This document shows, piece after piece, positions 1,217 to 26,874 of a stretch of DNA of 64,000 nucleotides. Below the pieces are notes generated by a model, which worked only from the letters and a program-made list of their open reading frames with translations, did not search any database and had not been told where the DNA came from. Both the position numbers and the translations under genes were made by a program. Each line of letters opens with the position of its first letter. Position 1 is the first letter of the stretch. Source of the stretch: Pseudonocardiaceae bacterium (GTDB taxonomy: Bacteria; Actinomycetota; Actinomycetes; Mycobacteriales; Pseudonocardiaceae); the NCBI GenBank assembly GCA_036494465.1, contig DASXOJ010000147.1:22955-86954 (forward strand), in the 5' to 3' direction.

Positions 1217-1238
1217 CGCCGCCTCCGCTCCTATGGCG

Positions 1239-3040: not shown

Positions 3041-3272
3041 TGCCTTCCTGTCCCACGACCTACCACGCACGGTAGCTCTTGCCCGCCGGTTGCCTCGCGT
3101 GCGTGCACTTTCCATCTTGGCTGGTCATGTCGGCTGGTGCCGGACCATCCGGACATGAGCGCCTGATCGTGTCGCACACAACAAGGACGGAATGACTGGC
3201 CGTTGCGGTTGGTTGGGAATTGACGCGTAAGTCCTTCACGTATCAGAACGTCGTTTTTCTCGGAGGTCGACC

Positions 3273-4525: not shown

Positions 4526-5146
4526 ATGGCGCGGTCGTCCGTTGAGGTGAGCTCCGTCGCGGAATTGTTCGATCGTCGAGTGGCGCCGATCGAGGCGCTG
4601 GCCCACGATGCCACCGCGGTCGCGCGGGCGTGCCACGCCATGGCGATTCGCTTTCACCAGGGCGGAAAACTTGTCGTCTTCGGCAACGGTGGGCCCAGCA
4701 CCGACGCGCAGCACGTCGCGGTCGAGTTCGTCCACCCGGTCATCGTCGGAAAACGCGCACTGCCCGCTATTTCGCTGACCGCCGATATTGCCACCATCAC
4801 CGGCATAGCCAATCGAGACGGACTCGCCGAAATATTCGCCCACCAGATACGTTTCCTTGCCGAGCCAGCGGATATCGCCCTCGGTATATCAACCGACGGT
4901 GACTGCGAGAACGTGCTGCGCGGGCTGAGCGTGGCACATGGTCTCGGCATGTTGACCATTGCCCTGGTCGGCGGAAACGGCGGAAAGATCGCGGCCAGCC
5001 GCGAAATCGATCACCTGTTGATTGCCGATTCGAATGATCCCCGGGTGATCAAGGAAGTACACGTGACCACGTATCACATTCTGTGGGAACTGGTGCACGT
5101 GTTCTTCGAGCAGCCCGGCGTGCTCGCCCCGGGAGTGCTGACATGA
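4526..5146 (+). CDS. GmhA-like SIS-domain protein 1 (hydrogenase-associated)
   Basis: FGNGGPSTDAQHVAVEF, GISTDG and EVHVTTYH align with phosphoheptose isomerase motifs. Confidence 0.85.
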   Translation: MARSSVEVSSVAELFDRRVAPIEALAHDATAVARACHAMAIRFHQGGKLVVFGNGGPSTDAQHVAVEFVHPVIVGKRALPAISLTADIATITGIANRDGLAEIFAHQIRFLAEPADIALGISTDGDCENVLRGLSVAHGLGMLTIALVGGNGGKIAASREIDHLLIADSNDPRVIKEVHVTTYHILWELVHVFFEQPGVLAPGVLT

Positions 5147-5382
5147 CCGAACCGCAGTACGTACCGGATCTCCAGGAAAGCCAGGAGTGCCACGACGAAG
5201 TGTGCATCACCTGCTCGGACCTCGCGGTCCAGGTCAGGGTGCTGCGCCTGCAGGCCGATGATCTGGCCATTGTGGACACTGGAAGTAGCGAGGAGGAGGT
5301 CAGCGTCGCGCTGGTGTCCGCGCACGTCGGCGACACGATACTGGTGCACGCCAGCGAGGCCATCGCGGTGATCCGGCCATGA
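5143..5382 (+). CDS. Atypical HypC/HybG/HupF-family protein
   Basis: ATGA overlap with SIS1. OB-fold pattern ...EVSVALV...VGDTILVHA..AI, preceded by CHDEVCITCSD. Confidence 0.75.
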   Translation: MTEPQYVPDLQESQECHDEVCITCSDLAVQVRVLRLQADDLAIVDTGSSEEEVSVALVSAHVGDTILVHASEAIAVIRP

Positions 5383-6041
5383 CCGAGGTCGAGGCCCTCT
5401 ACCCGTTCCTCTACGCAGACACCAGCAACATCGACGCGGTGCTCCAGGAGGTCCGCAGGTCTACTGTGGACAAGGCGAACGAGATCATCGCGCTGCGCCG
5501 TCAGGTGCTCGCCGTCGACGGCGCCCGGCTCGCCGAATGCGCCGACGACATGGCCGAACGTTTCGTGGCGGGCGGACGGCTGCTGACCTTCGGCAACGGC
5601 GGCAGCTCGACCGACTCGCAGGACCTGGCCAGCCTGTTCCTCGGTCACGAACGCCCGCTGCCCGCGTTCGGCCTCACCAACGACATCGCCGTGGTCACCG
5701 CGCTGTCCAACGACGTCGGCTTCGATGTCGTGTTCTCCCGCCAGATAGCGGCCTTCGCGCGGTCCGGTGACATCGCGGTCGGCCTGTCCACCAGCGGCAA
5801 CTCGGCCAACCTGTTGCGTGCCTTCGACGAAGCCGCCCGACGCGGCCTGTTGACGGTCGGCATCGCCGGTTACGACGGCGGCAAGATGGCCGAGCTGGAC
5901 AGCATCGACTACCTGTTCGTGGTGAACTCCGCTTCGGTGCACCGCATCCAGGAAGCCCAGACCACGATCTACCACGTGCTCTGGGAATTGACGCTGACCC
6001 TGACAAGTTCTGCAGCATCGATGAGAGGTGATCCGTCGTGA
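5379..6041 (+). CDS. GmhA-like SIS-domain protein 2 (hydrogenase-associated)
   Basis: FGNGGS, LSNDVGF, GLSTSGNSAN, RIQEAQTTIYH. Confidence 0.87.
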   Translation: MTEVEALYPFLYADTSNIDAVLQEVRRSTVDKANEIIALRRQVLAVDGARLAECADDMAERFVAGGRLLTFGNGGSSTDSQDLASLFLGHERPLPAFGLTNDIAVVTALSNDVGFDVVFSRQIAAFARSGDIAVGLSTSGNSANLLRAFDEAARRGLLTVGIAGYDGGKMAELDSIDYLFVVNSASVHRIQEAQTTIYHVLWELTLTLTSSAASMRGDPS

Positions 6042-7105
6042 CAGCGACTGAGCCAGCCCATGCCGCCACAGCGGCGGAGGAAGAGTCTCCCATCCATATC
6101 CTCTGGATCAATGCCGGATTGAGCTGTGACGGGGACTCGGTGGCGCTGACCGCGGCCACCCAGCCGAGTATCGAGGAGATCGTGCTCGGCGCCCTGCCCG
6201 GCCTGCCCAAGATCGCGGTGCACTGGCCGTTGATCGACTACGAATGCGGGCCGCTGCAAGGCGCGGACACGTTCATCGAATGGTTCTACAAGGCGGATCG
6301 AGGCGAACTGGAACCGTTCGTGCTGGTGATCGAGGGGTCCATCCCGAACGAGTCCATCAAGCGCGAGGGCTACTGGTCGGGTTTCGGCAACAACCCGCTC
6401 ACCGGCCAGCCGATGACCACCAGCGAATGGCTGGACCGGTTGGCGCCCAAGGCATTGGCGGTCGTCGCGGCGGGCACATGCGCCTGCTACGGCGGCATCC
6501 ACGCGATGGCGGGCAACCCGACCGGCGCGATGGGCGTGCCCGACTACCTCGGCTGGGACTGGAAGTCCAAGGCCGGTCTGCCGATCGTGTGCATCCCGGG
6601 TTGCCCGACGCACCCGGACAACTTCTCCGAGACCCTGCTCTACCTGCTGTACCAGGCCTCCGGTCAGGCACCGATGATCCCGCTTGACGACCAGCTGCGC
6701 CCGCGCTGGTTGTTCGGGTCGACCGTGCACGAGGGGTGTGACCGGGGCGGTTACTACGAGCAGGGCGAGTTCGCCGATGAATACGGCTCACCCAAGTGCC
6801 TGGTGAAGCTGGGCTGTTGGGGTCCGGTCGTCAAGTGCAACGTGCCCAAGCGGGGCTGGATCAACGGGGTCGGTGGTTGCCCGAACGTGGGCGGCATCTG
6901 TATCGGCTGCACGATGCCGGGCTTCCCGGACAAGTTCATGCCGTTCATGGACAAGCCGCTCGGCGCGAACGTGTCGGCAACGGCGAGTGTCACCTACGGC
7001 TCGATCATGCGCAAGCTGCGCGGATTCACGGCGCGCAAGGCCGACAAGGAACCGGCCTGGCGCAGCAAGGGTGAACTCAAGACCGGCTACCGGTCCTCCT
7101 GGTAA
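6038..7105 (+). CDS. hhyS: Group 1h [NiFe]-hydrogenase small subunit
   Basis: SCDGD, CACYGG, GCPTHP, HEGC, CLVKLGC, GCPNVGGICIGC FeS motifs; no Tat leader. Confidence 0.93.
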   Translation: MTATEPAHAATAAEEESPIHILWINAGLSCDGDSVALTAATQPSIEEIVLGALPGLPKIAVHWPLIDYECGPLQGADTFIEWFYKADRGELEPFVLVIEGSIPNESIKREGYWSGFGNNPLTGQPMTTSEWLDRLAPKALAVVAAGTCACYGGIHAMAGNPTGAMGVPDYLGWDWKSKAGLPIVCIPGCPTHPDNFSETLLYLLYQASGQAPMIPLDDQLRPRWLFGSTVHEGCDRGGYYEQGEFADEYGSPKCLVKLGCWGPVVKCNVPKRGWINGVGGCPNVGGICIGCTMPGFPDKFMPFMDKPLGANVSATASVTYGSIMRKLRGFTARKADKEPAWRSKGELKTGYRSSW

Positions 7106-7115
7106 GGGAAGCGCG

Positions 7116-8897
7116 ATGGCAACGACCAAGGGCAACAGCGACACCGACAAACTAGTCGAGATGTCGTGGGACCCGATCACCAGGATCGTCGGTAGCCTCG
7201 GGATCTACACCAAGATCGACTGGGCGCAGAAGCGCGTTGTCGAATGCCACAGCACCTCGTCGGTGTTCCGCGGCTACAGCATCTTCATGAAGGGCAAGGA
7301 CCCGCGCGACGCGCACTTCATCACCAGCAGGATCTGCGGCATCTGCGGCGACAACCACGCGACCTGCTCGGTCTACAACCAGAACATGGCCTATGGCGTG
7401 CGCCCGCCGCACCTCGCCGAGTGGATCATCAACCTCGGCGAGGCCGCCGAGTACATGTTCGACCACAACATCTTCCAGGAGAACCTGGTCGGCGTCGACT
7501 ACTGCGAACGGATGGTCCGGGAGACCAACCCGGGCGTGCTGGAACTGGCCAACCGCACCGAATCCCCGCACGCCGAACAGCACGGTTACCGCTTCATCGG
7601 CGACATCATGCGCGCGCTCAACCCGTTGGAGGGCGAGTTCTACCGCGAGGCGTTGCAGGTCAGCCGGTACACCAGGGAGATGTTCTGCCTGATGGAGGGG
7701 CGCCACGTGCACCCGTCCACGTTGTACCCGGGCGGCGTTGGCACGGTGGCCACGATCCAGCTGTTCACCGACTACCTGACCAGGCTGATGCGCTACGTGG
7801 AGTTCATGAAGCGCGTCGTCCCGCTGCACGACGACCTGTTCGACTTCTTCTACCAGGCCCTGCCCGGCTACGAGATGGTCGGCTACCGCCGCACCATGCT
7901 CGGCTGCTGGGGTTCGCTGAACGACCCGGACCACTGCGACTTCAGCTACCGGAACATGACCGACTGGGGCAGGCGGATGTTCGTCACCCCGGGCGTCGTC
8001 GTGGACGGCAAACTGGTCACCACCGACCTGGTCGACATCAACCTGGGCATCCGGATCCTGCTCGGTTCCTCGTACTACGAGGACTGGGAGGACCAGGAGA
8101 TGTTCGTGCACAACGACCCGTTGGGCAACCCGGTCGACCGTCGGCACCCGTGGAACCAGCACACGATTCCTCGGCCGGCAAAGCGCGACTTCGACGACAA
8201 GTACTCGTGGACCATGTCGCCGCGCTGGTTCGACGGCAAGGACTACCTCGCGCTGGACACCGGCGGCGGCCCGCTCGCCCGGTTGTGGCCGACGGCGCTG
8301 GCCGGCCTGGTCAACCACGACTACATCCGCTCCACCGGCCACAGCGTGATCATCAACCTGCCCAAGACCATGAACAAGCCGGAGGTCACCTTCGAGTGGA
8401 AGATTCCACAGTGGAGTAACGCGCTGGAGCGCAACCGCGCCCGCACCTACTTCCAGGCGTACGCGGCGGCATCGGCGATGCACTTCATCGAGAAGGCACT
8501 GGCCGAGGTGCGCGCAGGGCACACCAAGACCTGGGAGTCGTTCAAGGTGCCCGAGGAAGCCATCAGCTGCGGGTTCACCGAAGCCGTGCGCGGTGTGCTC
8601 TCGCACCACATGGTGATCAGGGGCGGCAAGATCGCCAACTACCACCCGTACCCGCCGACGCCCTGGAACGGCAGCGTCCGCGACTCCTACGGCACCGCAG
8701 GACCCTACGAGGACGCGGTGCAGAACACGCCGATCTTCGAGGAGAACACCCAGGAGAACTTCAAGGGCATCGACATCATGCGCGCGGTTCGCAGCTTCGA
8801 CCCGTGCCTGCCCTGTGGCGTGCACATGTCCGTTGGCAACGGAAAGGTGCTCAACAAGCTGCACTCGCCACACGCCTTCAACAACGACCAGATCTGA
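7116..8897 (+). CDS. hhyL: Group 1h [NiFe]-hydrogenase large subunit
   Basis: L1 TSRICGICGDNH and L2 SFDPCLPCGVH (group 1h/5 signatures), followed by a cleavable C-terminal tail. Start ATG 7116. Confidence 0.95.
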   Translation: MATTKGNSDTDKLVEMSWDPITRIVGSLGIYTKIDWAQKRVVECHSTSSVFRGYSIFMKGKDPRDAHFITSRICGICGDNHATCSVYNQNMAYGVRPPHLAEWIINLGEAAEYMFDHNIFQENLVGVDYCERMVRETNPGVLELANRTESPHAEQHGYRFIGDIMRALNPLEGEFYREALQVSRYTREMFCLMEGRHVHPSTLYPGGVGTVATIQLFTDYLTRLMRYVEFMKRVVPLHDDLFDFFYQALPGYEMVGYRRTMLGCWGSLNDPDHCDFSYRNMTDWGRRMFVTPGVVVDGKLVTTDLVDINLGIRILLGSSYYEDWEDQEMFVHNDPLGNPVDRRHPWNQHTIPRPAKRDFDDKYSWTMSPRWFDGKDYLALDTGGGPLARLWPTALAGLVNHDYIRSTGHSVIINLPKTMNKPEVTFEWKIPQWSNALERNRARTYFQAYAAASAMHFIEKALAEVRAGHTKTWESFKVPEEAISCGFTEAVRGVLSHHMVIRGGKIANYHPYPPTPWNGSVRDSYGTAGPYEDAVQNTPIFEENTQENFKGIDIMRAVRSFDPCLPCGVHMSVGNGKVLNKLHSPHAFNNDQI

Positions 8898-8959
8898 CGT
8901 GACGGAACTACCGGCGCCCGCGCATGCCGTGGGCGCCGGTACGCAATGGCGGAGGCGAC

Positions 8960-9829
8960 ATGGGCCAGGACGCGCACCAGATCGGCCAGCACGTCGAGCA
9001 GGCGCTGACCGAGATCGGCAAGACCGGCGACGAGAACATGCGCGCGCGGGTCGAGGACCTGGTCTCGACGTTGGTCGAGTTCTACGGTTCGACGCTGGAG
9101 CGGGTGATGGAGCTGGTGCACGAGCGCGGCGACATCGCGCTCACCTCGGCTCTCGGCGATGATCCGCTGGTCGGCAGCGTCCTTGTGGTGCACGACCTGC
9201 ACCCGCTGTCCACCGAGCAACGCGTGCGGGTCGCGCTGGACAAGGTCCGTCCCTACCTCGGTTCGCACGCGGGCGACGTCGACCTGGTGGGCGTGGTCGA
9301 CGACGTGGTCCAGCTGCGCCTCGCGGGCAGTTGCAACGGATGCCCGTCGTCGACGGTGACCGTGAAGCTCGCGATCGAGAAGGCGATCCAGGATGTCGCG
9401 CCCGAGATCGTGGACATCCAGGTCGAGGGCGTCGTCGACGAATCGGAGCTCGGCCCGGGCGGACACAAGCTGCTCCCGTTGACCTCGGTCGACGCGCCAC
9501 CCCCGCCCCGGATCGAATCCGACTGGTTCGAGGTAACAGCCGCCACGTCGCGCGACACCGTCACCAGCGTGCGGCTCGGCGACGTGGCCACCTTGCTGTG
9601 CAACGTGGGCGATCACCTCTACGCCTACCGCGACCACTGCCCGACCTGCGGTTCGGTGCTCGCCGCGGGCAGCCTGGACGGCACGGTCCTGACCTGCCCG
9701 AACTGCGCCAGCCACTTCGACGTCACCCGCGCCGGTCGCGGCACCGGCAAAACCCACCTCGATCCGCTGCCGCTGCTGACGGAGGCCGGTCACATCAGGG
9801 TGGCGTTGCCGGTCGAGGTGCTCTCATGA
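8960..9829 (+). CDS. NifU-like domain + Rieske-like domain protein (HhyE-type FeS carrier)
   Basis: LAGSCNGCPSS NifU motif; HCPTC...TCPNCASHF. GGAGG RBS before ATG 8960. Confidence 0.85.
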   Translation: MGQDAHQIGQHVEQALTEIGKTGDENMRARVEDLVSTLVEFYGSTLERVMELVHERGDIALTSALGDDPLVGSVLVVHDLHPLSTEQRVRVALDKVRPYLGSHAGDVDLVGVVDDVVQLRLAGSCNGCPSSTVTVKLAIEKAIQDVAPEIVDIQVEGVVDESELGPGGHKLLPLTSVDAPPPPRIESDWFEVTAATSRDTVTSVRLGDVATLLCNVGDHLYAYRDHCPTCGSVLAAGSLDGTVLTCPNCASHFDVTRAGRGTGKTHLDPLPLLTEAGHIRVALPVEVLS

Positions 9830-10455
9830 CCTCGGGCCTGCGTCGCTTCCGCAAGCCGGACACTCCTCCTGAGCCGGAGCAGGCCCCGCCGGTCGTCACC
9901 GGCGAGCAGCGTTGCGACATGTGCGCGACGCCGGTCAGCGAGGCAGAGCACTCGCACGTGGTCAACGTCGAGACCCGCGCGATCATGTGCACCTGTCGCG
10001 GTTGCTACCTGCTGTTCACGCATCGCGGCGCGGGCAAGCACCGGGCAGTGCCGGATCGCTACGTCCACGAGCCGAAGCTGGTGCTCGGCGCGGCGATGTG
10101 GGAGTCCGCGGGCATCCCGGTCGGCATGGCGTTCTTCTTCACCAACTCGCTGCTGGACAAGACGATGGCCTTCTACCCGAGCCCGGCAGGCGCGACCGAA
10201 TCACTGTTGCCGCTGGACGCCTGGAGCACCCTGCTGGCCGACAATCCGCGCTTCGCCGACGTCCGACCGGACGTGGAAGCGTTGCTGGTCAAGCGAACCG
10301 ACGACGGGTTCGCGTGCTTCCTGGTGCCGATCGACGTCTGCTACGAGCTGGTCGGCCTGATCCGGTTGCACTGGCGCGGGTTCGACGGCGGCAGCGAGGC
10401 GCGCGAAGCCATCGACGCGTTCTTCGCGCAGTTGCGGGAGCGCAGCGATGGCTGA
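9826..10455 (+). CDS. Hydrogenase-associated conserved protein (DUF5947-like, Cys-rich)
   Basis: ATGA overlap; CDMC...HSH...CTCRGC; FYPSPAGATES motif typical of group 1h clusters. Confidence 0.75.
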   Translation: MTSGLRRFRKPDTPPEPEQAPPVVTGEQRCDMCATPVSEAEHSHVVNVETRAIMCTCRGCYLLFTHRGAGKHRAVPDRYVHEPKLVLGAAMWESAGIPVGMAFFFTNSLLDKTMAFYPSPAGATESLLPLDAWSTLLADNPRFADVRPDVEALLVKRTDDGFACFLVPIDVCYELVGLIRLHWRGFDGGSEAREAIDAFFAQLRERSDG

Positions 10456-11080
10456 GCTGAGCTTCGAATGTCTCGGTGCCCGCCCAGACCCCTACGGCAC
10501 CAGCCCCACCTTGCTGTTCAAGCTACGGATCACCGAGGCCGACGGCGCGCCGGTGCACGCGGTCGCGCTGCGCTGCCAGATGCGCATCGAACCGCAGCGC
10601 CGCCGCTACAACGACGACGAAGCCGAGCTGCTGACCCACCTGTTCGGCGAACGCGCCCGCTGGGGCGACACGTTGAAGCCGATGCAGTTCACCACCGTCT
10701 CGATCATGGTGCCGAGTTTTCGCGGCAGCACCGAGATCGACCTGCCGGTGCCGATCACCTACGACCTGGAGGTGGCAGCCGGCAAGTACTTCCACGCGCT
10801 CGCCGACGGCGTGGTCCCGATGGCGTTGATGTTCAGCGGGACCGTGTTCAGCAAGGGACAGAACGGGTTCTGGGTGGACCAGATCTCGTGGAGCTCGGAT
10901 GTGAACTACCCGATGCCGATCACGGTGTGGCAGAACCTGATGAACACCTACTTCCCCGGCGAGGCGTGGATCCGGCTGTCCAAGGCCACCGTCGACGAAC
11001 TGTTGCGCTACAAGGCCAAGCACGCCATCCCCACCTGGGACGCGGCGATGACCGCCCTCCTCAAGGAGGCGGAGCAATGA
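10448..11080 (+). CDS. Hydrogenase-associated conserved protein (DUF6084-like)
   Basis: Coupled ORF; CQMRIEPQRRRY, TYDLEVAAGKYF, FSGTVF; position in a group 1h operon. Confidence 0.75.
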   Translation: MAELSFECLGARPDPYGTSPTLLFKLRITEADGAPVHAVALRCQMRIEPQRRRYNDDEAELLTHLFGERARWGDTLKPMQFTTVSIMVPSFRGSTEIDLPVPITYDLEVAAGKYFHALADGVVPMALMFSGTVFSKGQNGFWVDQISWSSDVNYPMPITVWQNLMNTYFPGEAWIRLSKATVDELLRYKAKHAIPTWDAAMTALLKEAEQ

Positions 11081-12366
11081 CCGCCGAAGCACAGTTCGAA
11101 CTGGTCAAGCCGGTCGCCGACGCGGTCCTCTACGAGGGCTACCTGCTCTACCCGTACCGGGCGTCGTCGACCAAGAACCAGGTCCGCTGGCAGTTCGGGG
11201 TCTTGATGCCGCCCGCCTTCGTGGCCACCGGCAGCGGCGAACGCGACACCATGTTCGTCGACTTCCTCGCCGAACCGCGTCCCACCGCCGTCGCGCACGT
11301 ACGCGTGCGGTTCCTCCAGGTGCAAACCAGACTGACCGAAGGGACCAGTTGGCAGGAGGCCGTCGAGCAGGAGGCAGACGTCTCGTTCGCGATCTCGGAC
11401 CTGCTCGCCGCGGAACGCGTCACCCCGATCACCATCCCCGGCGGCACCGAAACCGACGGCGAAACCGAACGCACCCGAGCCCCGCTGACCGCCGAAGTCC
11501 GGGCCAGCGCGGCAGAACTGCCCGGCCCCTACGGCGGCGTGCGAGTCCGGCTGACCATGTCGAACACCAGCACCGCGACCGACACGGATCGCGAAGCCGC
11601 GCTGCGCACGGCGCTGATCGCCTGCCACGCGGTGCTGGTGCTGCGCGACGGCCGGCTGATCTCGTTGCTCGAACCGCCGGAATGGGCCAAGCCGGCGGTG
11701 AAGGCGTGCCAGCAGGATGGCGCCTGGCCGATCATGATTGGCTCCGAGGACGCCCGGGACATGCTGCTCGTCTCGCCGATCATCCTCGACGACTACCCGG
11801 GCATCGCGCCGGAGAGTCCGCAGAACCTGTTCGACGGCACCGAGATCGACGAAATCCTCACTCTGCGCACGTTGGCCCTGACCGACGACGAGAAGCGCGA
11901 AGCCCGCGCGACCGATCCGCGCGCCAAGGAGATCATCGACAACGTCGATGGCATGCCTGCCGAGCTCTGGGACCGCCTGCACGGCACCATCCGCTACCTG
12001 CGCGCGGTCACCGGCGAAGTCGACCAGGTGCCCGAATTCCGCGAGCCAGGCGAGTTGAAGCCACCGGACGCACCGTGGTGGAACCCGGCCGCCGACGAAT
12101 CCGTGTCCCCGGAAACCGACAGTGTCGTGGTCGCGGGAAAGGCCGTCGCCAAAGGCAGCCGAGTGATCCTGCGCCCAGGTCTCAAGCGAGCAGACGCGCA
12201 GGACATGTTCCTGACCGGCCGGATCGCCAACGTCGAGTCGGTCATCTTCGACGTGGACGGCGACATCCACCTGGCCGTCACCCTGGAAGGCGATCCCGCC
12301 GCCGAGTTGGAGCTGTTGCAGGGCCGGTTCCGCTACTTCGCGCCCGAGGAGGTCGAACCGCTATGA
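11077..12366 (+). CDS. Hydrogenase-associated conserved hypothetical protein
   Basis: ATGA overlaps at both ends; ADAVLYEGYLLYPYR, WQFGVL, SPIILDDYP, DGTEIDEILTLR, PWW, ADAQDMF. Confidence 0.8.
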   Translation: MTAEAQFELVKPVADAVLYEGYLLYPYRASSTKNQVRWQFGVLMPPAFVATGSGERDTMFVDFLAEPRPTAVAHVRVRFLQVQTRLTEGTSWQEAVEQEADVSFAISDLLAAERVTPITIPGGTETDGETERTRAPLTAEVRASAAELPGPYGGVRVRLTMSNTSTATDTDREAALRTALIACHAVLVLRDGRLISLLEPPEWAKPAVKACQQDGAWPIMIGSEDARDMLLVSPIILDDYPGIAPESPQNLFDGTEIDEILTLRTLALTDDEKREARATDPRAKEIIDNVDGMPAELWDRLHGTIRYLRAVTGEVDQVPEFREPGELKPPDAPWWNPAADESVSPETDSVVVAGKAVAKGSRVILRPGLKRADAQDMFLTGRIANVESVIFDVDGDIHLAVTLEGDPAAELELLQGRFRYFAPEEVEPL

Positions 12367-12845
12367 GGATCCTGATCGCCGGGATCGGCAACATGTTCCT
12401 CGCCGACGACGGGTTCGGCGTCGAACTCGCGCAGCGCCTCGCGACGCACGACTTCCCGGACAGTGTGACCGTCGCGGACTACGGCATCAGCGGCATGCAC
12501 CTCGCCTACGACCTGATGACCGGCTACGACACCACCATCCTGCTCGACGCGACCGCGCGCGGCGACGAACCCGGCACCGTCACCGTCGTCGAACTGGACG
12601 AGAACCACCCGTTTTCCGGTGGGCAGAGCGCGGTCGACGCGCATGGCATGCAACCCGACGCGGTGGTCGAGCTGCTCACCCTGCTCGGCGGCCAACCCGG
12701 TCGGATGATCCTGGTCGGGTGCGAACCCGCCGAGGTCACCGACCGGATCGGCCTGTCCGCGCCGGTCACCGCCGCGCTCGACGGTGCCGCGCTTGCCGTC
12801 ATCGACCTGGTCGACCACGAGCTCGCTGTCAGAGAGGGGGTGTGA
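12363..12845 (+). CDS. Hydrogenase maturation endopeptidase (HyaD/HupD family)
   Basis: ILIAGIGNMFLADDGFG, LLDA, DAHGM motifs. Confidence 0.92.
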   Translation: MRILIAGIGNMFLADDGFGVELAQRLATHDFPDSVTVADYGISGMHLAYDLMTGYDTTILLDATARGDEPGTVTVVELDENHPFSGGQSAVDAHGMQPDAVVELLTLLGGQPGRMILVGCEPAEVTDRIGLSAPVTAALDGAALAVIDLVDHELAVREGV

Positions 12846-12959: not shown

Positions 12960-12983
12960 CCGAAACCTGAGGAGATGCATGAC

Positions 12984-13256
12984 ATGTGCCTCGGCATTCC
13001 CGGCGAGGTGATCGAAATCCTCGCGGACAAACCGGATCTGGCCAGGGTCGAGGTCAGTGGCGTACGTCGCGCCATCAACATCGGCCTGCTCGGTGACGAC
13101 AAACCCAAGCCAGGGGAATGGGTCCTGATCCACGTCGGCTTTGCACTGTCCAAAATCGACGAAGCCGAGGCGAAAGCCGCCCTGGACTTCCTGGAGAGCA
13201 TCGGTCAGGCCTACGCCGACGAGATCGACGCGCTCCGCGAATCACTAATAGAATAA
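12984..13256 (+). CDS. hypC: Hydrogenase assembly chaperone HypC
   Basis: MCLGIPG (Cys2) and WVLIHVGFAL. Start placed at ATG 12984 so that Cys is residue 2; GAGGAG RBS. Confidence 0.93.
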   Translation: MCLGIPGEVIEILADKPDLARVEVSGVRRAINIGLLGDDKPKPGEWVLIHVGFALSKIDEAEAKAALDFLESIGQAYADEIDALRESLIE

Positions 13257-13270
13257 GGAGGTCGGGTCGA

Positions 13271-14398
13271 ATGCGGTACGTCGACGAGTTCCGGGACGCG
13301 GACACCGCGCACGCGCTGGCCGCGAAGATCGCCGGTCTGTGTGAACCGGGGCGGCAGTACAAGTTCATGGAGGTGTGTGGCGGACACACGCACACCATCT
13401 ACAAACACGGCCTCGAGGACTACCTCCCCGAGAGCATCACCCTGGTACACGGCCCCGGTTGCCCGGTGTGCGTGATCCCGATGGGACGCGTCGACGACGC
13501 CATGGCGCTGGCCTCCGCGTCGGACGTGATCATGACCTCGTTCGGGGACATGATGCGTGTCCCGGGCAGTCGCGGCTCGTTCTTCGACGCCAAGGCGAAC
13601 GGCGTCGACATCAGGATGGTCTACTCGCCGCTGGACTCGTTGAAGATCGCCAGGCAGAATCCGGACAAGCGGGTGGTGTTCATGGCCATCGGCTTCGAGA
13701 CGACCGCGCCGTCGACCGCGATGACGGTGTTGCGCGCGGCGCAGGAAGGGCTCGAGAACTTCTCGATCTTCTGCAACCACGTCACCATCGTGCCTGCCAT
13801 CAAGGCCATTCTCGACTCGCCGGACCTGCGCCTGGACGGGTTCCTCGGGCCAGGCCACGTGTCGACCGTGATCGGCTGCCGGCCGTACGAGTTCATCTCC
13901 CGCGACTACGGCAAACCCGTTGTGGTCGCCGGTTTCGAACCGCTCGACATCCTTCAGTCCATCTACATGCTGATGATCCAGCTCAGCGAGGGCCGCGCCG
14001 AGATCGAGAACCAGTACTCGCGCGTGGTGCCGTGGGACGGGAACATCGTCGCGTTGAAGGCGATCAACGAGACCATGGAACTGCGGCCGTACTTCGAATG
14101 GCGCGGACTCGGTTTCATCTCGCACTCCGCGTTGCGCGTGCGGGAGAAGTACGCGCGGTTCGACGCGGAAGAACTGTTCGAGGTGCCCGGGGTGCGGGTC
14201 GCCGATCCCAAGGCGTGCCAGTGCGGTGAGGTGCTCAAGGGCGTGCTGAAACCGTGGGAGTGCAAGGTGTTCGGCACGGCCTGTACGCCGGAGACGCCGA
14301 TCGGCACGTGCATGGTCTCGCCCGAGGGCGCCTGCGCCGCCTACTACAACTTCGGCCGGTTCACCCGCCAGCGGGTCAAGGAGGCGACGGTGCGGTGA
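13271..14398 (+). CDS. hypD: Hydrogenase maturation protein HypD
   Basis: EVCGGH, GPGCPVC, GFETT and C-terminal CQC...C...CMVSPEGAC motifs. Confidence 0.95.
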   Translation: MRYVDEFRDADTAHALAAKIAGLCEPGRQYKFMEVCGGHTHTIYKHGLEDYLPESITLVHGPGCPVCVIPMGRVDDAMALASASDVIMTSFGDMMRVPGSRGSFFDAKANGVDIRMVYSPLDSLKIARQNPDKRVVFMAIGFETTAPSTAMTVLRAAQEGLENFSIFCNHVTIVPAIKAILDSPDLRLDGFLGPGHVSTVIGCRPYEFISRDYGKPVVVAGFEPLDILQSIYMLMIQLSEGRAEIENQYSRVVPWDGNIVALKAINETMELRPYFEWRGLGFISHSALRVREKYARFDAEELFEVPGVRVADPKACQCGEVLKGVLKPWECKVFGTACTPETPIGTCMVSPEGACAAYYNFGRFTRQRVKEATVR

Positions 14399-15555
14399 CC
14401 GAGCAGAAGAACTGGGTCGAAGAGGCGCTCGCCGAACACGAGAGCCAGGTCGACCAGAGGCACTTTTCCAAGGTGGCGCCAGGGGAACGCGAGGCGCTGG
14501 TCCTGGAACGCATCGACAGGGCCAGGCGGGCTCGCGCGCGGGTCAAGGAAGAACGGATCACCCTCGCGCACGGCTCCGGTGGCAAGGCGACGCACACGTT
14601 GATCGAGGCGATCTTCCTGGACGCCTTCCGCAACCCGCTGCTCGAACCCATGGAGGACGCGGCAAGACTCTCGATGGCGGGCGGCCGGATCGCGCTCACC
14701 ACCGACAGCTACGTGGTCTCGCCACTGTTCTTCCCCGGCGGCGACATCGGTGATCTCGCGATCAACGGCACCGTCAACGACCTCGCGGTGTCCGGCGCGA
14801 CGCCGATGTACCTCTCGGCCGGGTTCATCCTGGAGGAGGGCTTCCCGGTCGCCGACCTGCAACACATCGTGGCGTCCATGCGCGCCGCCGCCGAGGCCGC
14901 CGGCGTACAGGTGGTCACCGGGGACACCAAGGTCGTCCAGCGCGGCAAGGCCGACGGCTGCTACATCAACACCGCCGGTGTCGGCGTCGTGCCCGACGGG
15001 CTCGATCTTGGCGTGGTCAACGCGAAACCGGGCGATGCGGTGCTGGTGTCCGGGCCGATCGGCGATCACGGCGTCACGGTGATGCTGGCCAGGGGCGAGC
15101 TGGACATCGACACCGACCTCACCTCGGACACCGCCGCCGTCAACGGCCTGGTCGCCGACCTGCTTGCCGCCGTGCCCGGCGGTGTTCGTGCCATGCGGGA
15201 CGCGACGCGCGGCGGAGTGGCGACCATCCTGAACGAGGTCGCCAAGGCAGCCGATGTGAGCGTGATCGTCGCCGAGGACGACATCCCGGTGCGCGCGGAG
15301 GTGCGCGGCGCGTCCGAACTGCTCGGCATCGACCCGCTCTACGTGGCCTGTGAAGGCCGGATCGTCGCGATCGTGGACGGCGCCGTAGCAGACGCGGCGC
15401 TGGACGCCATGCACAACAACCCGCTCGGCCGCGAGGCCGCGATCATCGGGCGGATCGCCGCCGACCCGCCCGGCATCGTGCTGCTGCGCACCGCGTTCGG
15501 CGGCACCCGGATCGTGGACATGCTGGTCGGTGACCCGCTGCCCAGGATCTGTTAG
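14395..15555 (+). CDS. hypE: Carbamoyl dehydratase HypE
   Basis: AHGSGG, TTDSYVV, NDLAVSG, RDATRGG, C-terminal PRIC. Confidence 0.95.
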   Translation: MTEQKNWVEEALAEHESQVDQRHFSKVAPGEREALVLERIDRARRARARVKEERITLAHGSGGKATHTLIEAIFLDAFRNPLLEPMEDAARLSMAGGRIALTTDSYVVSPLFFPGGDIGDLAINGTVNDLAVSGATPMYLSAGFILEEGFPVADLQHIVASMRAAAEAAGVQVVTGDTKVVQRGKADGCYINTAGVGVVPDGLDLGVVNAKPGDAVLVSGPIGDHGVTVMLARGELDIDTDLTSDTAAVNGLVADLLAAVPGGVRAMRDATRGGVATILNEVAKAADVSVIVAEDDIPVRAEVRGASELLGIDPLYVACEGRIVAIVDGAVADAALDAMHNNPLGREAAIIGRIAADPPGIVLLRTAFGGTRIVDMLVGDPLPRIC

Positions 15556-15884
15556 TGCACGAGCTCTCCATTACCCAGAGCGTGGTGGACGCGGTCCTGG
15601 ACCGGTTGCCGGACACCCGGATCGCCGGTGTGCAGCTGGAGATCGGCAAGCTGTCCGGGATCGTGGCGGATTCGGTGCGGTTCTGCTTCGACCTGGTGGT
15701 GGCCGGCACGTTGCTGGAAGGCGCCCGGCTCGACATCGACGAGCCGGGCGGCCGGGCGCGCTGCGCCGAATGCGACACCGAGTTCGATGTGGACGACCTG
15801 ATTCTGCTGTGCCCGTGCGGCAGCGCGAACGTTGCCGTGCTGACCGGGCAACAGCTGCGGATTCGATCGGTTGAGGTGGTCTGA
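15555..15884 (+). CDS. hypA: Nickel metallochaperone HypA
   Basis: MHELS; CAEC and CPCG zinc-site motifs. Confidence 0.92.
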   Translation: MHELSITQSVVDAVLDRLPDTRIAGVQLEIGKLSGIVADSVRFCFDLVVAGTLLEGARLDIDEPGGRARCAECDTEFDVDDLILLCPCGSANVAVLTGQQLRIRSVEVV

Positions 15885-16583
15885 ATGTGCGCGACCTGCG
15901 GCTGCGGCGACACCCACACCCACTCCGACGAGCACCAGCACCGGACCGTGCTGCTCGAACAGGACGTGCTCGCCAAGAACGACCACCTCGCGCACGCCAA
16001 CCGGCACTGGCTCGCCGACCGGCGGGTACTCGCCGTCAACCTGATGAGCTCGCCGGGCGCAGGCAAGACCACCCTGCTGGAACGCACCATCCCCGAACTC
16101 CCGATTTCGGTCATCGAAGGAGATCAGGAAACCCAGTTCGACGCCGACCGGATCCGCGCGACCGGCTGCGCCGCCATCCAGATCAACACCGGCGCCGGCT
16201 GCCACCTGGACGCCGAGATGGTCGCGCGCGCCCTGCGGGAACTCGACCCGCCCACCGACTCGATCGTGATGATCGAGAACGTCGGGAACCTGGTCTGCCC
16301 GGCGCTGTTCGATCTCGGCGAGGCCGCGAAGATCGTGATCACCTCGGTCACCGAGGGCGCGGACAAGCCGCTGAAGTACCCGCACATGTTCCGCGCCGCC
16401 AACCTGGTGCTGCTCAACAAGACCGACCTGCTGCCCTACGTCGAGTTCGACGTTGACCGGTTCATCGCCGACGCGCGCAAGCTCAACCCGGACATCGTCG
16501 TGCTGCGCCTGTCCGCCACCCGGGGCGAGGGCATCGCCGACTGGCTGGACTGGCTGCGCAAACGCCTCGCCGCGCACACCTGA
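15885..16583 (+). CDS. hypB: Nickel incorporation GTPase HypB
   Basis: MCATCGC, His stretch, SSPGAGKTT, GCHLDA, ENVGNLVCP, NKTD. Confidence 0.95.
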   Translation: MCATCGCGDTHTHSDEHQHRTVLLEQDVLAKNDHLAHANRHWLADRRVLAVNLMSSPGAGKTTLLERTIPELPISVIEGDQETQFDADRIRATGCAAIQINTGAGCHLDAEMVARALRELDPPTDSIVMIENVGNLVCPALFDLGEAAKIVITSVTEGADKPLKYPHMFRAANLVLLNKTDLLPYVEFDVDRFIADARKLNPDIVVLRLSATRGEGIADWLDWLRKRLAAHT

Positions 16584-17155: not shown

Positions 17156-18286
17156 GTGTTTGGATATCGCGTGCCCGCGCCCAATGAGGCGTTGCTCATC
17201 AGCGGGCGAAAACAGCGTGGTGTGGACCGGTTACAGTTCAAGATCGTCACCGGGCACGGCGCGTTCGTGATGCCGATCTTCGCGCGCTCCAGCAGGCTCT
17301 CGCTGGCCATGCAGGAAGCCGAAGTCTATGAAGACTGCTTCACTCAGCAAGGACTGACGCTCGCCGTGCAGGCGGTCATCGCGTTCAAGGTCGGCGACGA
17401 CCACGAGTCGATAGCCGCGGCAGCGCGCCGTTTCCAGGGCGACCAGCGACAGATGGCGACGCTGGTCGGCCGGATCTTCTCCGGCCACCTGCGCAGCATC
17501 ATCGGCAGCATGACCGTCGAGTCGATCATCCGCGAGCAGCAGACGCTCGCCATCGCGATTCTGGACGCGAGCACCGGCGAGATGGCGCGCATCGGCCTGG
17601 CCGTCGACTCGTTGCAGATCAGCAGCATCGACGACAAGGGCTCCGGCTACATCCGCGCGCTCGCCGCGCCGCACCAGGCCAGGGTCAACCAGGACGCGAA
17701 GGTCGCCCAGGCAGCGGCCGACCAGATGAGTGTCCAGGCGCAGCAGGAAAGCGTGCGCGCGCAGAACGCCTACGCCCGCGAAACGGCTGTGATGCAGGCG
17801 CGCTATCAGGCCGAGATCGACGAGGCCCAGCAGACCGCCGCGCAGGCCGGTCCGCTGGCGGAGGCCAAGGCGCAGCAGGCGGTGCTCGCGGAAAAGGCAC
17901 AGGTCGCCATGCGCAACGCGGAACTGCGCGAAGCCGAACTGATCGCCGAGGTCGTCAAGCCCGCCGAGGCCGAAGCCGACCGGATCGTGCGGCTGGCCAA
18001 GGCGCAGGCCGACGCCACCAAACTGTCCGCGCAGGCAGCGGCAGCGGAGGGCCGGATCGCGCTCGACCAAGCCGTGATCGCGCAACTGCCGGAGATGCTG
18101 CGCGCGGCGGCCGAAGGGTTGCAGGGCTCGAACCTGACGGTGCTGGACGGTGCCGACGGCCTGACCGGCGTGGTCGCTTCCCTTGCCGGGCAAGGCATGG
18201 CGCTGCTCGACTCGGTGCGCAACGGCCTCGCGGGCAGCGTCCCGGCGAACCTGGCCGGGGTCGCCAAGTTGGATCAGGCGGACTGA
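17156..18286 (+). CDS. Flotillin / SPFH domain protein
   Basis: YRVPAPNEALLISG, SPFH core (GHLRSIIGSMTVE, DSLQI), Ala/Glu-rich coiled-coil tail (AEAEA). Confidence 0.9.
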   Translation: MFGYRVPAPNEALLISGRKQRGVDRLQFKIVTGHGAFVMPIFARSSRLSLAMQEAEVYEDCFTQQGLTLAVQAVIAFKVGDDHESIAAAARRFQGDQRQMATLVGRIFSGHLRSIIGSMTVESIIREQQTLAIAILDASTGEMARIGLAVDSLQISSIDDKGSGYIRALAAPHQARVNQDAKVAQAAADQMSVQAQQESVRAQNAYARETAVMQARYQAEIDEAQQTAAQAGPLAEAKAQQAVLAEKAQVAMRNAELREAELIAEVVKPAEAEADRIVRLAKAQADATKLSAQAAAAEGRIALDQAVIAQLPEMLRAAAEGLQGSNLTVLDGADGLTGVVASLAGQGMALLDSVRNGLAGSVPANLAGVAKLDQAD

Positions 18287-20535: not shown

Positions 20536-20557
20536 CGGGCCAGTGTGCTCCCGATCA

Positions 20558-21346
20558 CTACCGTTGACCAGCCAGCCGCCGCCACACCCGGACCACCGCG
20601 CCGTCGTCCTTGGCCAGGTGGTCGACGACACAGCGGCGCAGGTCGAGCAGGTCCGGGTCGTCGCGGAAGAACTCGGTCAGTTCGGTGGTGTACGCCCAGC
20701 GCGCCACCAGCGCGAACTCGGTCAGCTCGCCGCCGGTGAAACCGGTGGTCGGCAACCGGACCAGCACGGTATGCCCGTCGCCGACCAGCAGCAGCGAGCG
20801 CGGCACGCTCGGGTTGACCATGCCGGTCACGCCGGCCGGAAACGGATGCCGCAGACCGGCCGCGTCGATCAGGGCCGGGCCGCGCTGGTCGAGGTGCAGG
20901 CCGCCGTTGTGCCACCAGCCCGCGCTCGGTCGTGGCCCGTCGGCGGAGAGCCACGCGTCGACCCTGGACAGCAGCGGACCGTTCGCGGTGTCCTCGACCG
21001 GCGGGTGCGGACGGATCCAGAGCAGTGCCGGTTCGGTGCTGAGCTGGTCGGCGCCGATCTGCGGTTCGCGTTCCGCGCGACGGGCCCGGACCGTGCGCCG
21101 GATGGCGAAGCCGATCAGGATCACCGCAAGCGCCTCACCGCAGGCGAACACGCTTCGGGTCGCGACCGCAGGCAGGCGCACGGAATCCAGTAGCGCCGCC
21201 ACATCGACGACGAACACCGCGATCGCGATCGCCGCGAAACCGAGCCGGGCGCCCGATCGGCGCGGGCGCCGGGCCGCTTCCCAGGTGAGCGGGACCACCA
21301 GGGCGATGGTCAGCCACGTGATCACCGCTTGCCAGATCTCGGGCAT
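20558..21346 (-). CDS. Hypothetical membrane protein (about 3 N-terminal TM helices)
   Basis: GGGAGG RBS before ATG 21346; fills the gap between the GH15 gene and hypF. Confidence 0.6.
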   Translation of the reverse strand: MPEIWQAVITWLTIALVVPLTWEAARRPRRSGARLGFAAIAIAVFVVDVAALLDSVRLPAVATRSVFACGEALAVILIGFAIRRTVRARRAEREPQIGADQLSTEPALLWIRPHPPVEDTANGPLLSRVDAWLSADGPRPSAGWWHNGGLHLDQRGPALIDAAGLRHPFPAGVTGMVNPSVPRSLLLVGDGHTVLVRLPTTGFTGGELTEFALVARWAYTTELTEFFRDDPDLLDLRRCVVDHLAKDDGAVVRVWRRLAGQR

Positions 21347-26530: not shown

Positions 26531-26546
26531 GCCGGGACCCTAGCAA

Positions 26547-26816
26547 CTAGCCGGTCAGCGACGCGATCGGTTTGGCGGGCGTGGTCAGCATGGAGAGCTG
26601 ATCGAGGGACAGGCCGACCGCTTCGGCGATGGCGACCACGGTGAAGAAGGCTGGCGTTGGCACCCGGCCGTGCTCGATCTTGCGCAGCGTTTCCACGGAT
26701 ACACCGGCCGCCGCGGCGATCTCCACGCTGGTCCGGTCGCCTCTGGCCGCGCGCAGGGCCGCGCCGAGTCGGGCGCCGCGATCGTGGTCTTGCGCGCTCA
26801 GCGGGGGGCGAACCAT
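26547..26816 (-). CDS. XRE family HTH regulator
   Basis: LRAARG...IAAAAGVSVETLRKIEHGRVPTP; divergent from map. Confidence 0.87.
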   Translation of the reverse strand: MVRPPLSAQDHDRGARLGAALRAARGDRTSVEIAAAAGVSVETLRKIEHGRVPTPAFFTVVAIAEAVGLSLDQLSMLTTPAKPIASLTG

Positions 26817-26874
26817 GACACCAATAGTAGTACCGTGATAGAAATACCGGTATAACTATTGGCAAGGAGGATTC

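Follow-up and report, generated by a model that had tools for sequence, protein, structure and literature searches.

Why should an actinobacterial hydrogenase locus encode two GmhA-like SIS proteins, each of which carries only part of the GmhA active site? The question arises in a window of 64,000 nucleotides (contig DASXOJ010000147.1, Pseudonocardiaceae bacterium), in which genes for the two proteins, SIS1 and SIS2, lie directly 5' of the genes for a group 1h-type [NiFe]-hydrogenase. Group 1h and 2a [NiFe]-hydrogenases oxidise atmospheric H2 and are the main biological H2 sink. They are also candidate air-stable catalysts, the production of which requires that all maturation factors be known. 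In the literature, the genes studied here are merely listed as "gmhA" neighbours. We report that the residues of one GmhA site are divided between SIS1 and SIS2, and we infer from sequence comparison that the two proteins probably form an obligate A/B hetero-oligomer with one composite metal/phosphosugar site per pair. Together with a HypC-like protein encoded between them, the pair would serve as an accessory maturation module of O2-insensitive [NiFe]-hydrogenases.

Gene layout and residues of SIS1 and SIS2

SIS1, the A-type half (4526..5146, + strand; 206 aa; Pfam SIS_2), has the ribosome-binding site GAGGAAG approximately 9 nt 5' of its start. It is followed on the same strand by a gene for a HypC/HupF-like protein (5143..5382; 79 aa; Pfam PF01455) and by SIS2, the B-type half (5379..6041; 220 aa; Pfam SIS_2). 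The apparent gap of 233 bases between SIS1 and SIS2 is therefore not empty, the HypC/HupF-like gene in it having been overlooked in the earlier note. Next on the + strand are hhyS, encoding a group 1h-type [NiFe]-hydrogenase small subunit (6038..7105; Pfam NiFe_hyd_SSU_C and Oxidored_q6), and hhyL, encoding the large subunit (7116..8897; Pfam PF00374). Start and stop codons overlap as ATGA at the SIS1/HypC-like and HypC-like/SIS2 junctions and as GTGA at the SIS2/hhyS junction; SIS1, the HypC-like gene and SIS2 are translationally coupled through the former, and SIS2 is coupled to hhyS through the latter. A promoter and terminator scan 5' of SIS1 gave no signal beyond chance.

Conserved 1h-cluster accessory genes follow on the + strand (8924..12845), encoding a NifU+Rieske protein (8924-9829), DUF5947 (9790-10455) and DUF6084 (10448-11080) proteins, a 429-aa protein that matches no Pfam family (11077-12366) and a maturation protease (12363-12845), in a gene order identical to that of the AH cluster on C. 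necator pHG1. The hyp block, also on the + strand (12975..16583), consists of canonical hypC (12975-13256), hypD (13271-14398), hypE (14395-15555), hypA (15555-15884) and hypB (15885-16583), and hypF lies on the - strand (18274..20631). The SIS1-SIS2 pair is flanked by an EamA transporter gene on one side and by hhyS on the other, and no heptose-pathway gene (HldE, GmhB, HddA) is next to it.

The HypC-like gene (5143-5382) matches PF01455 with an E value of 8e-9 and 35.9 bits, against a cut-off of 28.5 bits. Its 79-aa product carries the motif C16-H17-x3-C21-x2-C24-S-D, and the C-x4-C-x-T-C-S-D pattern is kept in approximately 95 loci. The segment C-S-D-L-A-V-Q-V aligns with the N-terminal MCLGIPGQV region of HypC/HupF/HybG proteins, of which the essential cysteine in HypC is residue 2, HypC-C2 (PMC12134894). 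In the HypC-like protein, by contrast, the aligned cysteine is internal (C24) and a 23-residue N-terminal extension adds two conserved cysteines, C16 and C21. The gene coexists with the canonical hypC of the hyp block.

Residues of the SIS proteins are numbered after E. coli GmhA, in a sequence identical to PDB 2i22_A residues 21-212. In the alignment, SIS1 retains H61, E65 and H180 (H63, E67 and H184 in its own numbering) and has changed D94 to R97, S121 to D124, S124 to C127 and Q172 to K176. SIS2 retains N93-D94 (N111-D112), S119-T120-S121 (S137-T138-S139), S124 (S142), Q172 (Q191) and H180 (H199), with H61 changed to D82 and E65 to L86. Every residue assignment that the earlier note had made for the two proteins is thus borne out. 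The GmhA pocket N52-G-G-S55, N93-D94, S119-T120-S121, S124 is present in SIS2, whose phosphosugar site is whole (N73-G-G-S76, N111-D112, S137-T138-S139, S142, R189, Q191, E192), and SIS1 has R97, D124 and C127 instead. SIS1 possesses family-specific invariant residues of its own: C36, H70-P71, K76 and H191. The H61/E65/Q172/H180 set is complete in neither protein alone, only in both summed.

Both proteins are predicted to have the GmhA/SIS_2 fold. Their best solved relatives in a phmmer search of the PDB are GmhA structures (E 1e-28 to 1e-31), with DiaA also among the matches. The GmhA equivalog model TIGR00441 gives 125.1 bits for SIS1 and 130.4 bits for SIS2, both below the curated cut-off of 209.45 bits.

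Conservation, fusion and the undivided form

The earlier note had proposed that orthologs be aligned; such alignments show the reciprocal split in 176 A/B pairs, drawn from databases and from the genomes sampled. All 54 A-type and all 56 B-type copies in a sample of 60 actinobacterial loci fit it, and the A type and the B type are each monophyletic there (support 0.98 and 0.96, respectively). One apparent "B only" locus, L067, was rejected, as a truncated A-gene remnant is present there.

A profile search with the A-type alignment yielded at least 600 matching stretches, the best 80 of which all came from Actinomycetes and were 60-93% identical. The split recurs in 80/80 named genomes, A always having an adjacent B-type gene. 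In each of the 80, positions 61/65/180 of the A type read HEH and positions 68/69/187 read HPH, and the B type reads NDSTSSQ in 77, with two copies deviating by one residue and one only partly readable; H61 and E65 occur in none of the 80 B copies. Judging from these alignments, the reciprocal split is not due to chance. Nor is A decaying, because two motifs peculiar to it, TDAQHxxVEFVHPVIVGKRALPA and YHxLWELVHVFFE, are invariant (26-sequence alignment A1), and both are present in SIS1.

The two chains also covary. A-Q172 goes with B-D61/D65 in 49/51 pairs, and A-K172 goes with B-D65 in 0 of approximately 100 A-K172 pairs, a pattern that could trace back to a small number of independent events in evolution.

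Joined halves are common among the genomes. A::B single-frame fusions occur in approximately 38 of the 60 sampled loci, as well as in Thermus, Gemmatimonadota and Acidobacteriota proteins, and among 150 representatives at 50% identity the order is A-B in 34 and B-A in none. In mycobacteria the HypC-like domain is fused to the A half, and some proteins have the arrangement A::HypC-like::B. The natural A::B fusion of Thermus scotoductus, modelled with AlphaFold2 and assessed by pTM and per-domain fold matches, has a pTM of 0.86. Each of its domains matches GmhA chains with a target-normalised TM of 0.84-0.89, and the whole aligns with GKRP and the GlmS isomerase domain over 400-475 columns (query-normalised TM 0.57-0.66). 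In GlmS/GFAT and GKRP two SIS domains form one unit with a single sugar-phosphate site, a tandem architecture common to the fused A::B orthologues, whereas the domains in the window are separate polypeptides. The resemblance to GlmS/GFAT and GKRP further differs in its low identity (only 10-12%), in SIS subclass and in the lack of GmhA-type metal-site residues.

An undivided form also exists. In the AH/group 1h cluster of Cupriavidus necator H16 (pHG1, WP_011153996.1), hypC and hypD are separated by a single SIS gene, and Afipia carboxidovorans (pHCG3, WP_013913768.1) has a counterpart of the same hydrogenase-linked subfamily as A and B; the gene order in both clusters is hypF-hypC-SIS-hypD-hypE. 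These proteins contain every residue of both halves plus H68/P69/H187, showing the A hallmarks HxAVEF(V/L)HPV and YHILW(D/E)LVH as well as those of B (NGGS, ND, STSGNS and HRxQE), and an N-terminal LYPFL motif. The single protein, one undivided gene with the complete set, is presumably a homo-oligomer. Compared with it, the window holds a duplicated, reciprocally degenerated two-gene form with a HypC-like gene between the halves.

The proposed composite site

GmhA (EC 5.3.1.28; SIS_2; PDB 2i22, 2x3y, 2xbl, 5i01) is clearly homologous to the A/B pair and shares its fold, and the pair jointly has the Zn/catalytic residues H61/E65/Q172/H180 and the phosphate loop S119-T120-S121/S124. The active site of GmhA itself spans subunits. 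Its zinc is bound by H61, E65 and H183 of one monomer along with Q175 of the adjacent one (PMC5387315), in agreement with the earlier note, which had placed the site at a subunit interface with His/Glu/His on one chain and Gln on the next. For M. tuberculosis GmhA, modelling and docking group N53, the phosphate loop S121-S126 and Q173, with E66 supplied by the other monomer (PMC7705670); PMC11056994 is a further source for the chain assignments. GmhA displays half-of-sites reactivity, a hybrid tetramer with one intact site reaching full kcat per site (PMC5705639). It is, however, a homotetramer with four complete sites, whereas here the residues are divided between two paralogous chains. GmhA also has R69 where hyp-linked proteins have P69, lacks the extra invariant H68 and H187 seen in the A type and the undivided form, and is found among heptose genes rather than the hyp and hydrogenase genes that surround SIS1 and SIS2.

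The proposal that each paralog is incomplete singly, and that the two would jointly make one composite site dedicated to the hydrogenase, is favoured by all of the comparative tests. It is supported because the partition of kept residues is the chain partition of the GmhA site, because the reciprocal pattern is conserved in 176 A/B pairs, because the halves are fused in many genomes with A always first, because the single hyp-linked SIS of Cupriavidus and Afipia has the complete residue set, and because all sampled loci bar one control sit, over the length of their contigs, in hyp or hydrogenase clusters. For a physical A:B complex, with or without the HypC-like protein, the fusions and the covariation of the two chains are indirect support.

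The ancestor would have been a hydrogenase-linked GmhA-like protein that was duplicated, with reciprocal residue loss then giving SIS1 (A) and SIS2 (B). The predicted assembly is a GmhA-type hetero-oligomer, for which A2B2 is the simplest composition. At each A:B interface, A would contribute the metal/catalytic H61/E65/H180 and the family-specific H68 and H187, and B would contribute Q172 and the phosphosugar pocket N52-S55, N93-D94, S119-T120-S121, S124 and R170. Each A:B pair would have one complete site, the symmetry-related site being dead owing to B's D and L at 61 and 65 and to A's K172 and degenerate phosphate loop. As GmhA homotetramers use one site per adjacent pair at a time, the loss of one site per pair may cost little, and half-of-sites kinetics are thus a possible reason that reciprocal loss was tolerated. 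Retention of H180 in approximately 80% of B copies counts against a simple dead-site model, which needs no H180 there. Metal binding might still be possible in fused lineages at the reverse site, where D61/D65/H180 of B would meet Q172 of A. The pair probably binds a metal ion as well as a phosphorylated ketose or aldose. The system would be a natural case in which a homo-oligomeric enzyme with shared sites is predicted to have become an obligate heteromer through reciprocal loss, with both the intact ancestor-like form and re-fused forms extant.

An unlikely alternative is that the A/B complex acts without turnover as a phosphosugar sensor, which would tie hydrogenase maturation or stability to carbon status. 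SIS domains commonly serve as ligand-sensing modules, for example in RpiR-type regulators and GKRP, and the A::B fusion model aligns with the tandem-SIS regulator GKRP and the GlmS isomerase domain. Mycobacterial hydrogenase expression is also described as responding to carbon supply (PMC13098282). Yet strict retention of H61/E65/H180/Q172, along with two more invariant histidines, goes beyond the demands of ligand binding. The proteins carry no output domain, DNA-binding or otherwise, and where they are fused to a further domain it is HypC-like, an indication of cofactor chemistry. A sensor of this kind would likewise require the A/B heteromer.

It is less probable still, in our estimate, that SIS1 and SIS2 are two independent proteins, SIS1 a non-catalytic scaffold or adaptor like DiaA and SIS2 a homo-oligomeric sugar-phosphate binder, their adjacency reflecting only a shared pathway. 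DiaA is a GmhA-fold tetramer that has lost its catalytic residues and has a non-enzymatic role in DnaA binding, for which the signature is L190/F191. It is among the best solved matches for both proteins (E ~1e-20), and in mycobacteria A by itself is fused to the HypC-like domain. The adaptor precedent is real in that DiaA uses the GmhA fold for protein-protein interaction (PMC4697000). DiaA is, however, a homotetramer without a complementary partner, without E65 and without a hydrogenase-gene link, and the genomic context of SIS1 and SIS2 argues against a DiaA-type replication-initiation role. Independence would leave unexplained why the kept residues are the exact two chain-halves of one GmhA site, as well as the repeated fixed-order A::B fusions, the intact single-gene form and the inter-chain covariation, and it sits poorly with the presence of a B-type gene beside every A in the named genomes.

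The genome contains a third GmhA paralog, detected in a six-frame search, with all residues intact (TIGR00441, 149 bits) and, according to Pfam scans, a GT4 glycosyltransferase and an HldE-like kinase/nucleotidyltransferase as neighbours. The earlier note's argument that actinomycetes make no heptose is consequently wrong for this genome, which has a heptose pathway with an intact, separate GmhA beside an HldE-like gene. Ordinary heptose biosynthesis, in which SIS1 and/or SIS2 would be working sedoheptulose-7-phosphate isomerases making glycan glycero-manno-heptose with incidental hydrogenase adjacency, is very improbable: orthologues are labelled "D-sedoheptulose 7-phosphate isomerase" in databases and GmhA is the closest characterised family, but both proteins score far under the equivalog cut-off, neither has the full catalytic set, this separate GmhA with its GT4 and HldE-like neighbours is already at hand, and A/B genes were found with hyp genes across several phyla and in no case with heptose-pathway genes. 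An ordinary GmhA, a DiaA-like adaptor and an independent function were all considered and ranked low.

Linkage to hydrogenase genes and HypX

Apart from one canonical GmhA control, all sampled loci (59/60) belong to hyp or hydrogenase clusters, within the reach of their contigs. The favoured A/B heteromer, with the three-cysteine HypC-like protein, would constitute an accessory module in Hyp-dependent maturation, serving the group 1h enzyme here and, elsewhere, a second hydrogenase type approximately 40% identical to it. A whole-genome search found hhyL to be single, with no second copy; its relatives in other Actinomycetota are 60-88% identical. By a hand count, the A type is present in approximately 38 of the 49 Actinomycetota genomes that encode an HhyL of 60% identity or more. 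It was undetected in approximately 10 of the 49 genomes with a 1h-type large subunit, and at least three Streptomyces-like 1h genomes have no SIS homologue whatever at the thresholds applied. The module is therefore not strictly required for every 1h enzyme.

The A motif occurs in at least 597 scanned genomes, and a protein database search with the fused form as query matched at least 8,000 proteins at E <= 1e-20. Copies are found in Actinomycetota, Deinococcota, Bacillota, Gemmatimonadota, Acidobacteriota, Chloroflexota and Pseudomonadota, the breadth beyond Actinomycetes being drawn from plasmid records and protein searches. The SIS/HypC-like module is thus widespread and tightly coupled to hyp genes, yet it is missing from a 2025 review of [NiFe]-cofactor biosynthesis, in the text of which "SIS" does not appear (PMC12134894).

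HypX was surveyed in 401 Actinomycetota genomes with C. necator HypX as query, and an either/or pattern with the SIS module was sought. HypX occurs in 9 of the 401, and no clean anticorrelation with the SIS module was found among them. Two Streptomyces-like genomes with a 1h-type hydrogenase have HypX and no A type; one of them has no SIS at all, and there HypX adjoins hhyL. HypX and the A type occur together in four genomes, in two of these at 40% identity with partial coverage, and C. necator has both HypX and the SIS module. A full-length HypX homologue was found neither in the genome studied here nor in approximately 53 of 57 A-type genomes.

The origin of CO in organisms that lack HypX is an acknowledged open question (PMC12134894). 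It is unlikely that the composite A:B site is a working metalloenzyme which, with the HypC-like protein, provides an input when Fe(CN)2CO is assembled in air and HypX is missing. The idea fits that question, the lack of full-length HypX here and in most A-type genomes, and the position of the single proteobacterial SIS gene between hypC and hypD, but it is weakened because HypX and the SIS module show no clean anticorrelation. Were the module an enzyme of cofactor synthesis, it would have implications for where the CO ligand comes from.

Gene layout of the SIS1-SIS2 locus

The interval 4526-6041 comprises three plus-strand genes: SIS1 (4526-5146; 206 aa) and SIS2 (5379-6041; 220 aa), each encoding a SIS_2 domain, and between them a HypC/HupF-like gene (5143-5382; 79 aa; Pfam PF01455, E 8e-9). 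The earlier note had listed both SIS genes and did not mention the one they enclose. A GAGGAAG ribosome-binding site lies upstream of SIS1, and stop and start codons overlap at the SIS1/HypC-like (ATGA), HypC-like/SIS2 (ATGA) and SIS2/hhyS (GTGA) junctions. Downstream of SIS2 are hhyS and hhyL, encoding the small and large hydrogenase subunits, and, in the same cluster, genes for a NifU+Rieske protein, DUF5947, DUF6084, a 429-aa protein and a maturation protease, together with canonical hypC (12975-13256), hypD, hypE, hypA and hypB; hypF is on the opposite strand to the rest of the cluster. A whole-genome search found this to be the sole [NiFe]-hydrogenase of its genome. The nearest organism-named homologues of SIS1 are from Pseudonocardiaceae. 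Upstream of the operon are genes for a SARP/BTAD-type regulator (2-1435, minus strand), a PfkB sugar kinase (1239-2063, minus), an inosine-uridine nucleoside hydrolase (2060-3115, minus) and an EamA transporter (3273-4199, plus).

The 429-aa protein (11077-12366, plus strand) is another uncharacterised companion of group 1h hydrogenases. It matches nothing in Pfam; 1h clusters repeatedly carry a gene at this position, and its equivalent in the C. necator pHG1 AH cluster is annotated 'hypothetical protein'.

Residue partition and its conservation

SIS1 and SIS2 score 125 and 130 bits, respectively, against the GmhA equivalog TIGR00441 (cut-off 209 bits). Among solved structures, both match GmhA best (E 1e-28 to 1e-31) and DiaA next. 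Residues are numbered by an E. coli GmhA reference identical to PDB 2i22_A, and the numbering can therefore be trusted. SIS1 keeps H61 (its H63), E65 (E67) and H180 (H184), and reads N96-R97 at N93-D94, S122-T123-D124 at S119-T120-S121, C127 at S124 and K176 at Q172. SIS2 keeps N93-D94 (N111-D112), S119-T120-S121 (S137-T138-S139), S124 (S142), Q172 (Q191) and H180 (H199), and carries D82 at H61 and L86 at E65. The alignment thus agrees with every residue assignment in the earlier note, whose premise of a GmhA active site shared across subunits is also correct (PMC5387315, PMC7705670, PMC11056994). Three chains contribute to each GmhA site, with Zn ligands from two of them (PMC11056994). In modelled and docked M. 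tuberculosis GmhA, N53, G55, S121-S126 and Q173 are grouped around the substrate, Q173 and E66 belonging to different monomers (PMC7705670). The sites described in PMC5387315 are stated by its authors to equal those of B. pseudomallei GmhA. On these published chain assignments, SIS1 has kept the residues of the 'metal and catalytic' chain and SIS2 the residues of the 'Q172 plus phosphosugar' chain of that same site; the two sets are two chain-halves of one site. B. pseudomallei GmhA displays half-of-sites behaviour within each adjacent site pair, and a hybrid tetramer with one intact site has a kcat per site equal to that of wild type (PMC5705639). The reciprocal loss could thus have been tolerated: capacity need not drop in a heteromer in which each pair has a single live site.

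In order to examine conservation of the split, as the earlier note had proposed, 401 Actinomycetota genomes were searched with SIS1, 60 loci were fetched, and all SIS domains were aligned to the E. coli numbering. All 54 A-type (SIS1-like) copies in these loci keep H61, E65 and H180 and are degenerate at N93-D94 and in the phosphate loop. The 56 B-type (SIS2-like) copies all keep NGGS, ND, STS, S124, Q172 and E173, and without exception lack H61 and E65. In a FastTree phylogeny, A and B are each monophyletic (support 0.98 for A and 0.96 for B). When one genome of each species was scanned with the A-type alignment, at least 600 stretches matched, 597 of which were confirmed; the named loci examined, the best 80 of the at least 600, include Amycolatopsis, Saccharopolyspora, Kutzneria, Microbispora, Streptosporangium, Actinomadura and others. 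In all 80, A has HEH at 61/65/180 and HPH at 68/69/187 and is adjoined by a B-type gene; 77 of these genes show NDSTSSQ, two depart from it at a single residue and one is partly readable. The complementary split is conserved in both samples. H180 is absent from 17 of the 77 strict B copies, as expected if B's own metal half-site were dead. The A type is not a decaying pseudoenzyme. Its own invariant features are the motifs TDAQ-H61-xxV-E65-FV-H68-P69-VIVGKRALPA and Y-H180-xLWELV-H187-VFFE, and a cysteine that is C36 in SIS1.

In one metagenome-assembled genome (L067; G122:C308, ~6365-6418), an A-type gene is reduced to its final ~18 codons (HLWELVHVLFEQPGLL). A repetitive insert precedes this remnant, and the HypC-like gene, B gene and hhyS downstream of it are intact; either the A gene has been disrupted or the contig is misassembled.

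The argument in the earlier note that an actinomycete has no LPS heptose to make does not hold for this organism. Its genome has a third GmhA paralog (G000:C112, ~26300-26962; L001 1039-2004), in which every canonical catalytic residue is present. This paralog is neighbored by genes for a GT4 glycosyltransferase and an HldE-like PfkB kinase and nucleotidyltransferase (cytidylyltransferase), and the locus looks like a bona fide heptose pathway. Activated heptose would thus come from a separate GmhA, which adds weight to another role for SIS1 and SIS2.

Undivided, fused and modelled forms

The AH (group 1h) cluster of C. necator H16 pHG1 is ordered hypF-hypC-SIS-hypD-hypE-hypA-hypB, and Afipia carboxidovorans pHCG3 shares the hypF-hypC-SIS-hypD-hypE core. 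Unlike SIS1 and SIS2, their single SIS combines A and B hallmarks in one protein (NGGS, H61, E65, H68, P69, ND, STS, S124, R170, Q172, H180 and H187 all present). In the simplest history, the ancestor would have been an intact hyp-linked homo-oligomer that underwent duplication, then reciprocal residue loss.

The two halves have been rejoined many times. A and B occupy one open frame in ~38 of the 60 sampled loci, usually just after hypE. Thermus thermophilus pTHTHE1601 has, between hypE and hypF, a gene for a 392-aa A::B protein (both halves in one polypeptide); among the matches listed, its identity to relatives from Gemmatimonadota and Acidobacteriota is 68-74%. A database search with the Thermus fusion found at least 8,000 proteins at E <= 1e-20. 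In a set of 150 representatives (50% identity), domain order was A-B in 34 and B-A in none. A Mycobacterium intracellulare plasmid has the A half fused to a HypC-like domain, then B, and two database proteins (P0217, P0237) are A::HypC-like::B triple fusions. These fusions indicate that the three window genes are one functional unit.

On Sulfobacillus acidophilus plasmid CP003180.1 (L152), an A::B gene (7854-9088) between hypE and a glutaredoxin gene is frameshift-split and carries no CDS annotation. A small glutaredoxin-like gene lies directly 3' of the fused gene both there (9084-9311) and in Thermus pTHTHE1601 (L150; 10085-10345), where it is annotated as Uxx-star selenoprotein-type; a glutaredoxin is also marked in acidobacterial 1h clusters (PMC5900883). 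An LYPFL motif precedes the B-type domain in the window (5397-5414; SIS2 residues 7-12) and in the linkers of both fused loci, with variants 'ALYPFLY', 'FLYPFLGQ' and 'DLYPFLH' in split, fused and single-gene forms across phyla.

In GmhA, the interface brings residue 172 of one chain up to residues 61 and 65 of its partner. Among 176 tabulated A/B pairs, Q at A-172 accompanies D61/D65 in B in 49 of 51, and K at A-172 (~100 pairs) accompanies an uncharged B-65, never Asp. This covariation fits a GmhA-like A:B interface and is suggestive only, since the counts are raw and shared ancestry was not corrected for. In the window lineage, SIS1 K176 may act as a plug against SIS2 D82 at the 'reverse' site.

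An AlphaFold2 model of the Thermus scotoductus A::B fusion (P0291; 37 aligned sequences) has a mean pLDDT of 85.8 and a pTM of 0.86, with low confidence only in the linker and one loop. In a Foldseek search of the PDB, each domain matches GmhA chains at a target-normalised TM of 0.84-0.89. The whole model matches the GlmS/GFAT isomerase domain and GKRP, tandem-SIS proteins with one site per pseudo-dimer, over 400-475 columns (query-normalised TM 0.57-0.66).

Association with hydrogenases and a proposed role in maturation

Homology, residue partition, fusions and synteny of SIS1 and SIS2 are direct observations. Residue partition, conservation, fusions and covariation together argue for the heteromer first proposed from the window: SIS1 and SIS2 would form an obligate A/B hetero-oligomer in which each pair has a single composite site for metal and phosphosugar, probably a new, heteromeric variant of the GmhA/SIS kind. 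It would act with the three-cysteine HypC-like protein in Hyp-dependent maturation, making the pair a candidate unrecognised hydrogenase maturation factor. That protein has conserved cysteines C16, C21 and C24, and C-x4-C-x-T-C-S-D is kept in ~95 loci; whereas the key cysteine of HypC is at position 2, the HypC-type cysteine here is internal.

Published work found on these SIS genes consists only of listings: a 'putative phosphoheptose isomerase (gmhA)' in group 1h synteny figures (PMC5900883), gmhA as 'often found in group 1h and group 2a hydrogenase operons' (PMC11879354), entries in gene tables (PMC3505973) and a neighbourhood census (PMC12727194). SIS proteins go unmentioned in a 2025 review of how the [NiFe] cofactor is made (PMC12134894).

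Every sampled A/B locus lies among hyp/hydrogenase genes, as far as contigs reach. By hand count, ~57 of the 401 genomes have a clear A type and three more a degenerate one; of the 49 genomes whose HhyL is at least 60% identical, ~38 have the A type, and other A-type genomes have a large subunit ~40% identical. The SIS module is common, not universal, since at least three Streptomyces-like genomes of the 401 have a 1h-type enzyme and no SIS homologue at the thresholds used.

That the module supplies CO or iron in air is a low-probability speculation. Full-length homologues of HypX are absent from the window's own genome and occur in only nine of the 401 Actinomycetota genomes, among which HypX and the SIS module show no clean mutual exclusion. 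In a Streptomyces-like genome without any SIS homologue (G054:C1), the gene for the 1h-type large subunit is preceded, ~1.3 kb upstream, by one for a full-length HypX homologue (7925175-7926863 and 7928198-7929952), and other genomes carry HypX and the SIS module together.
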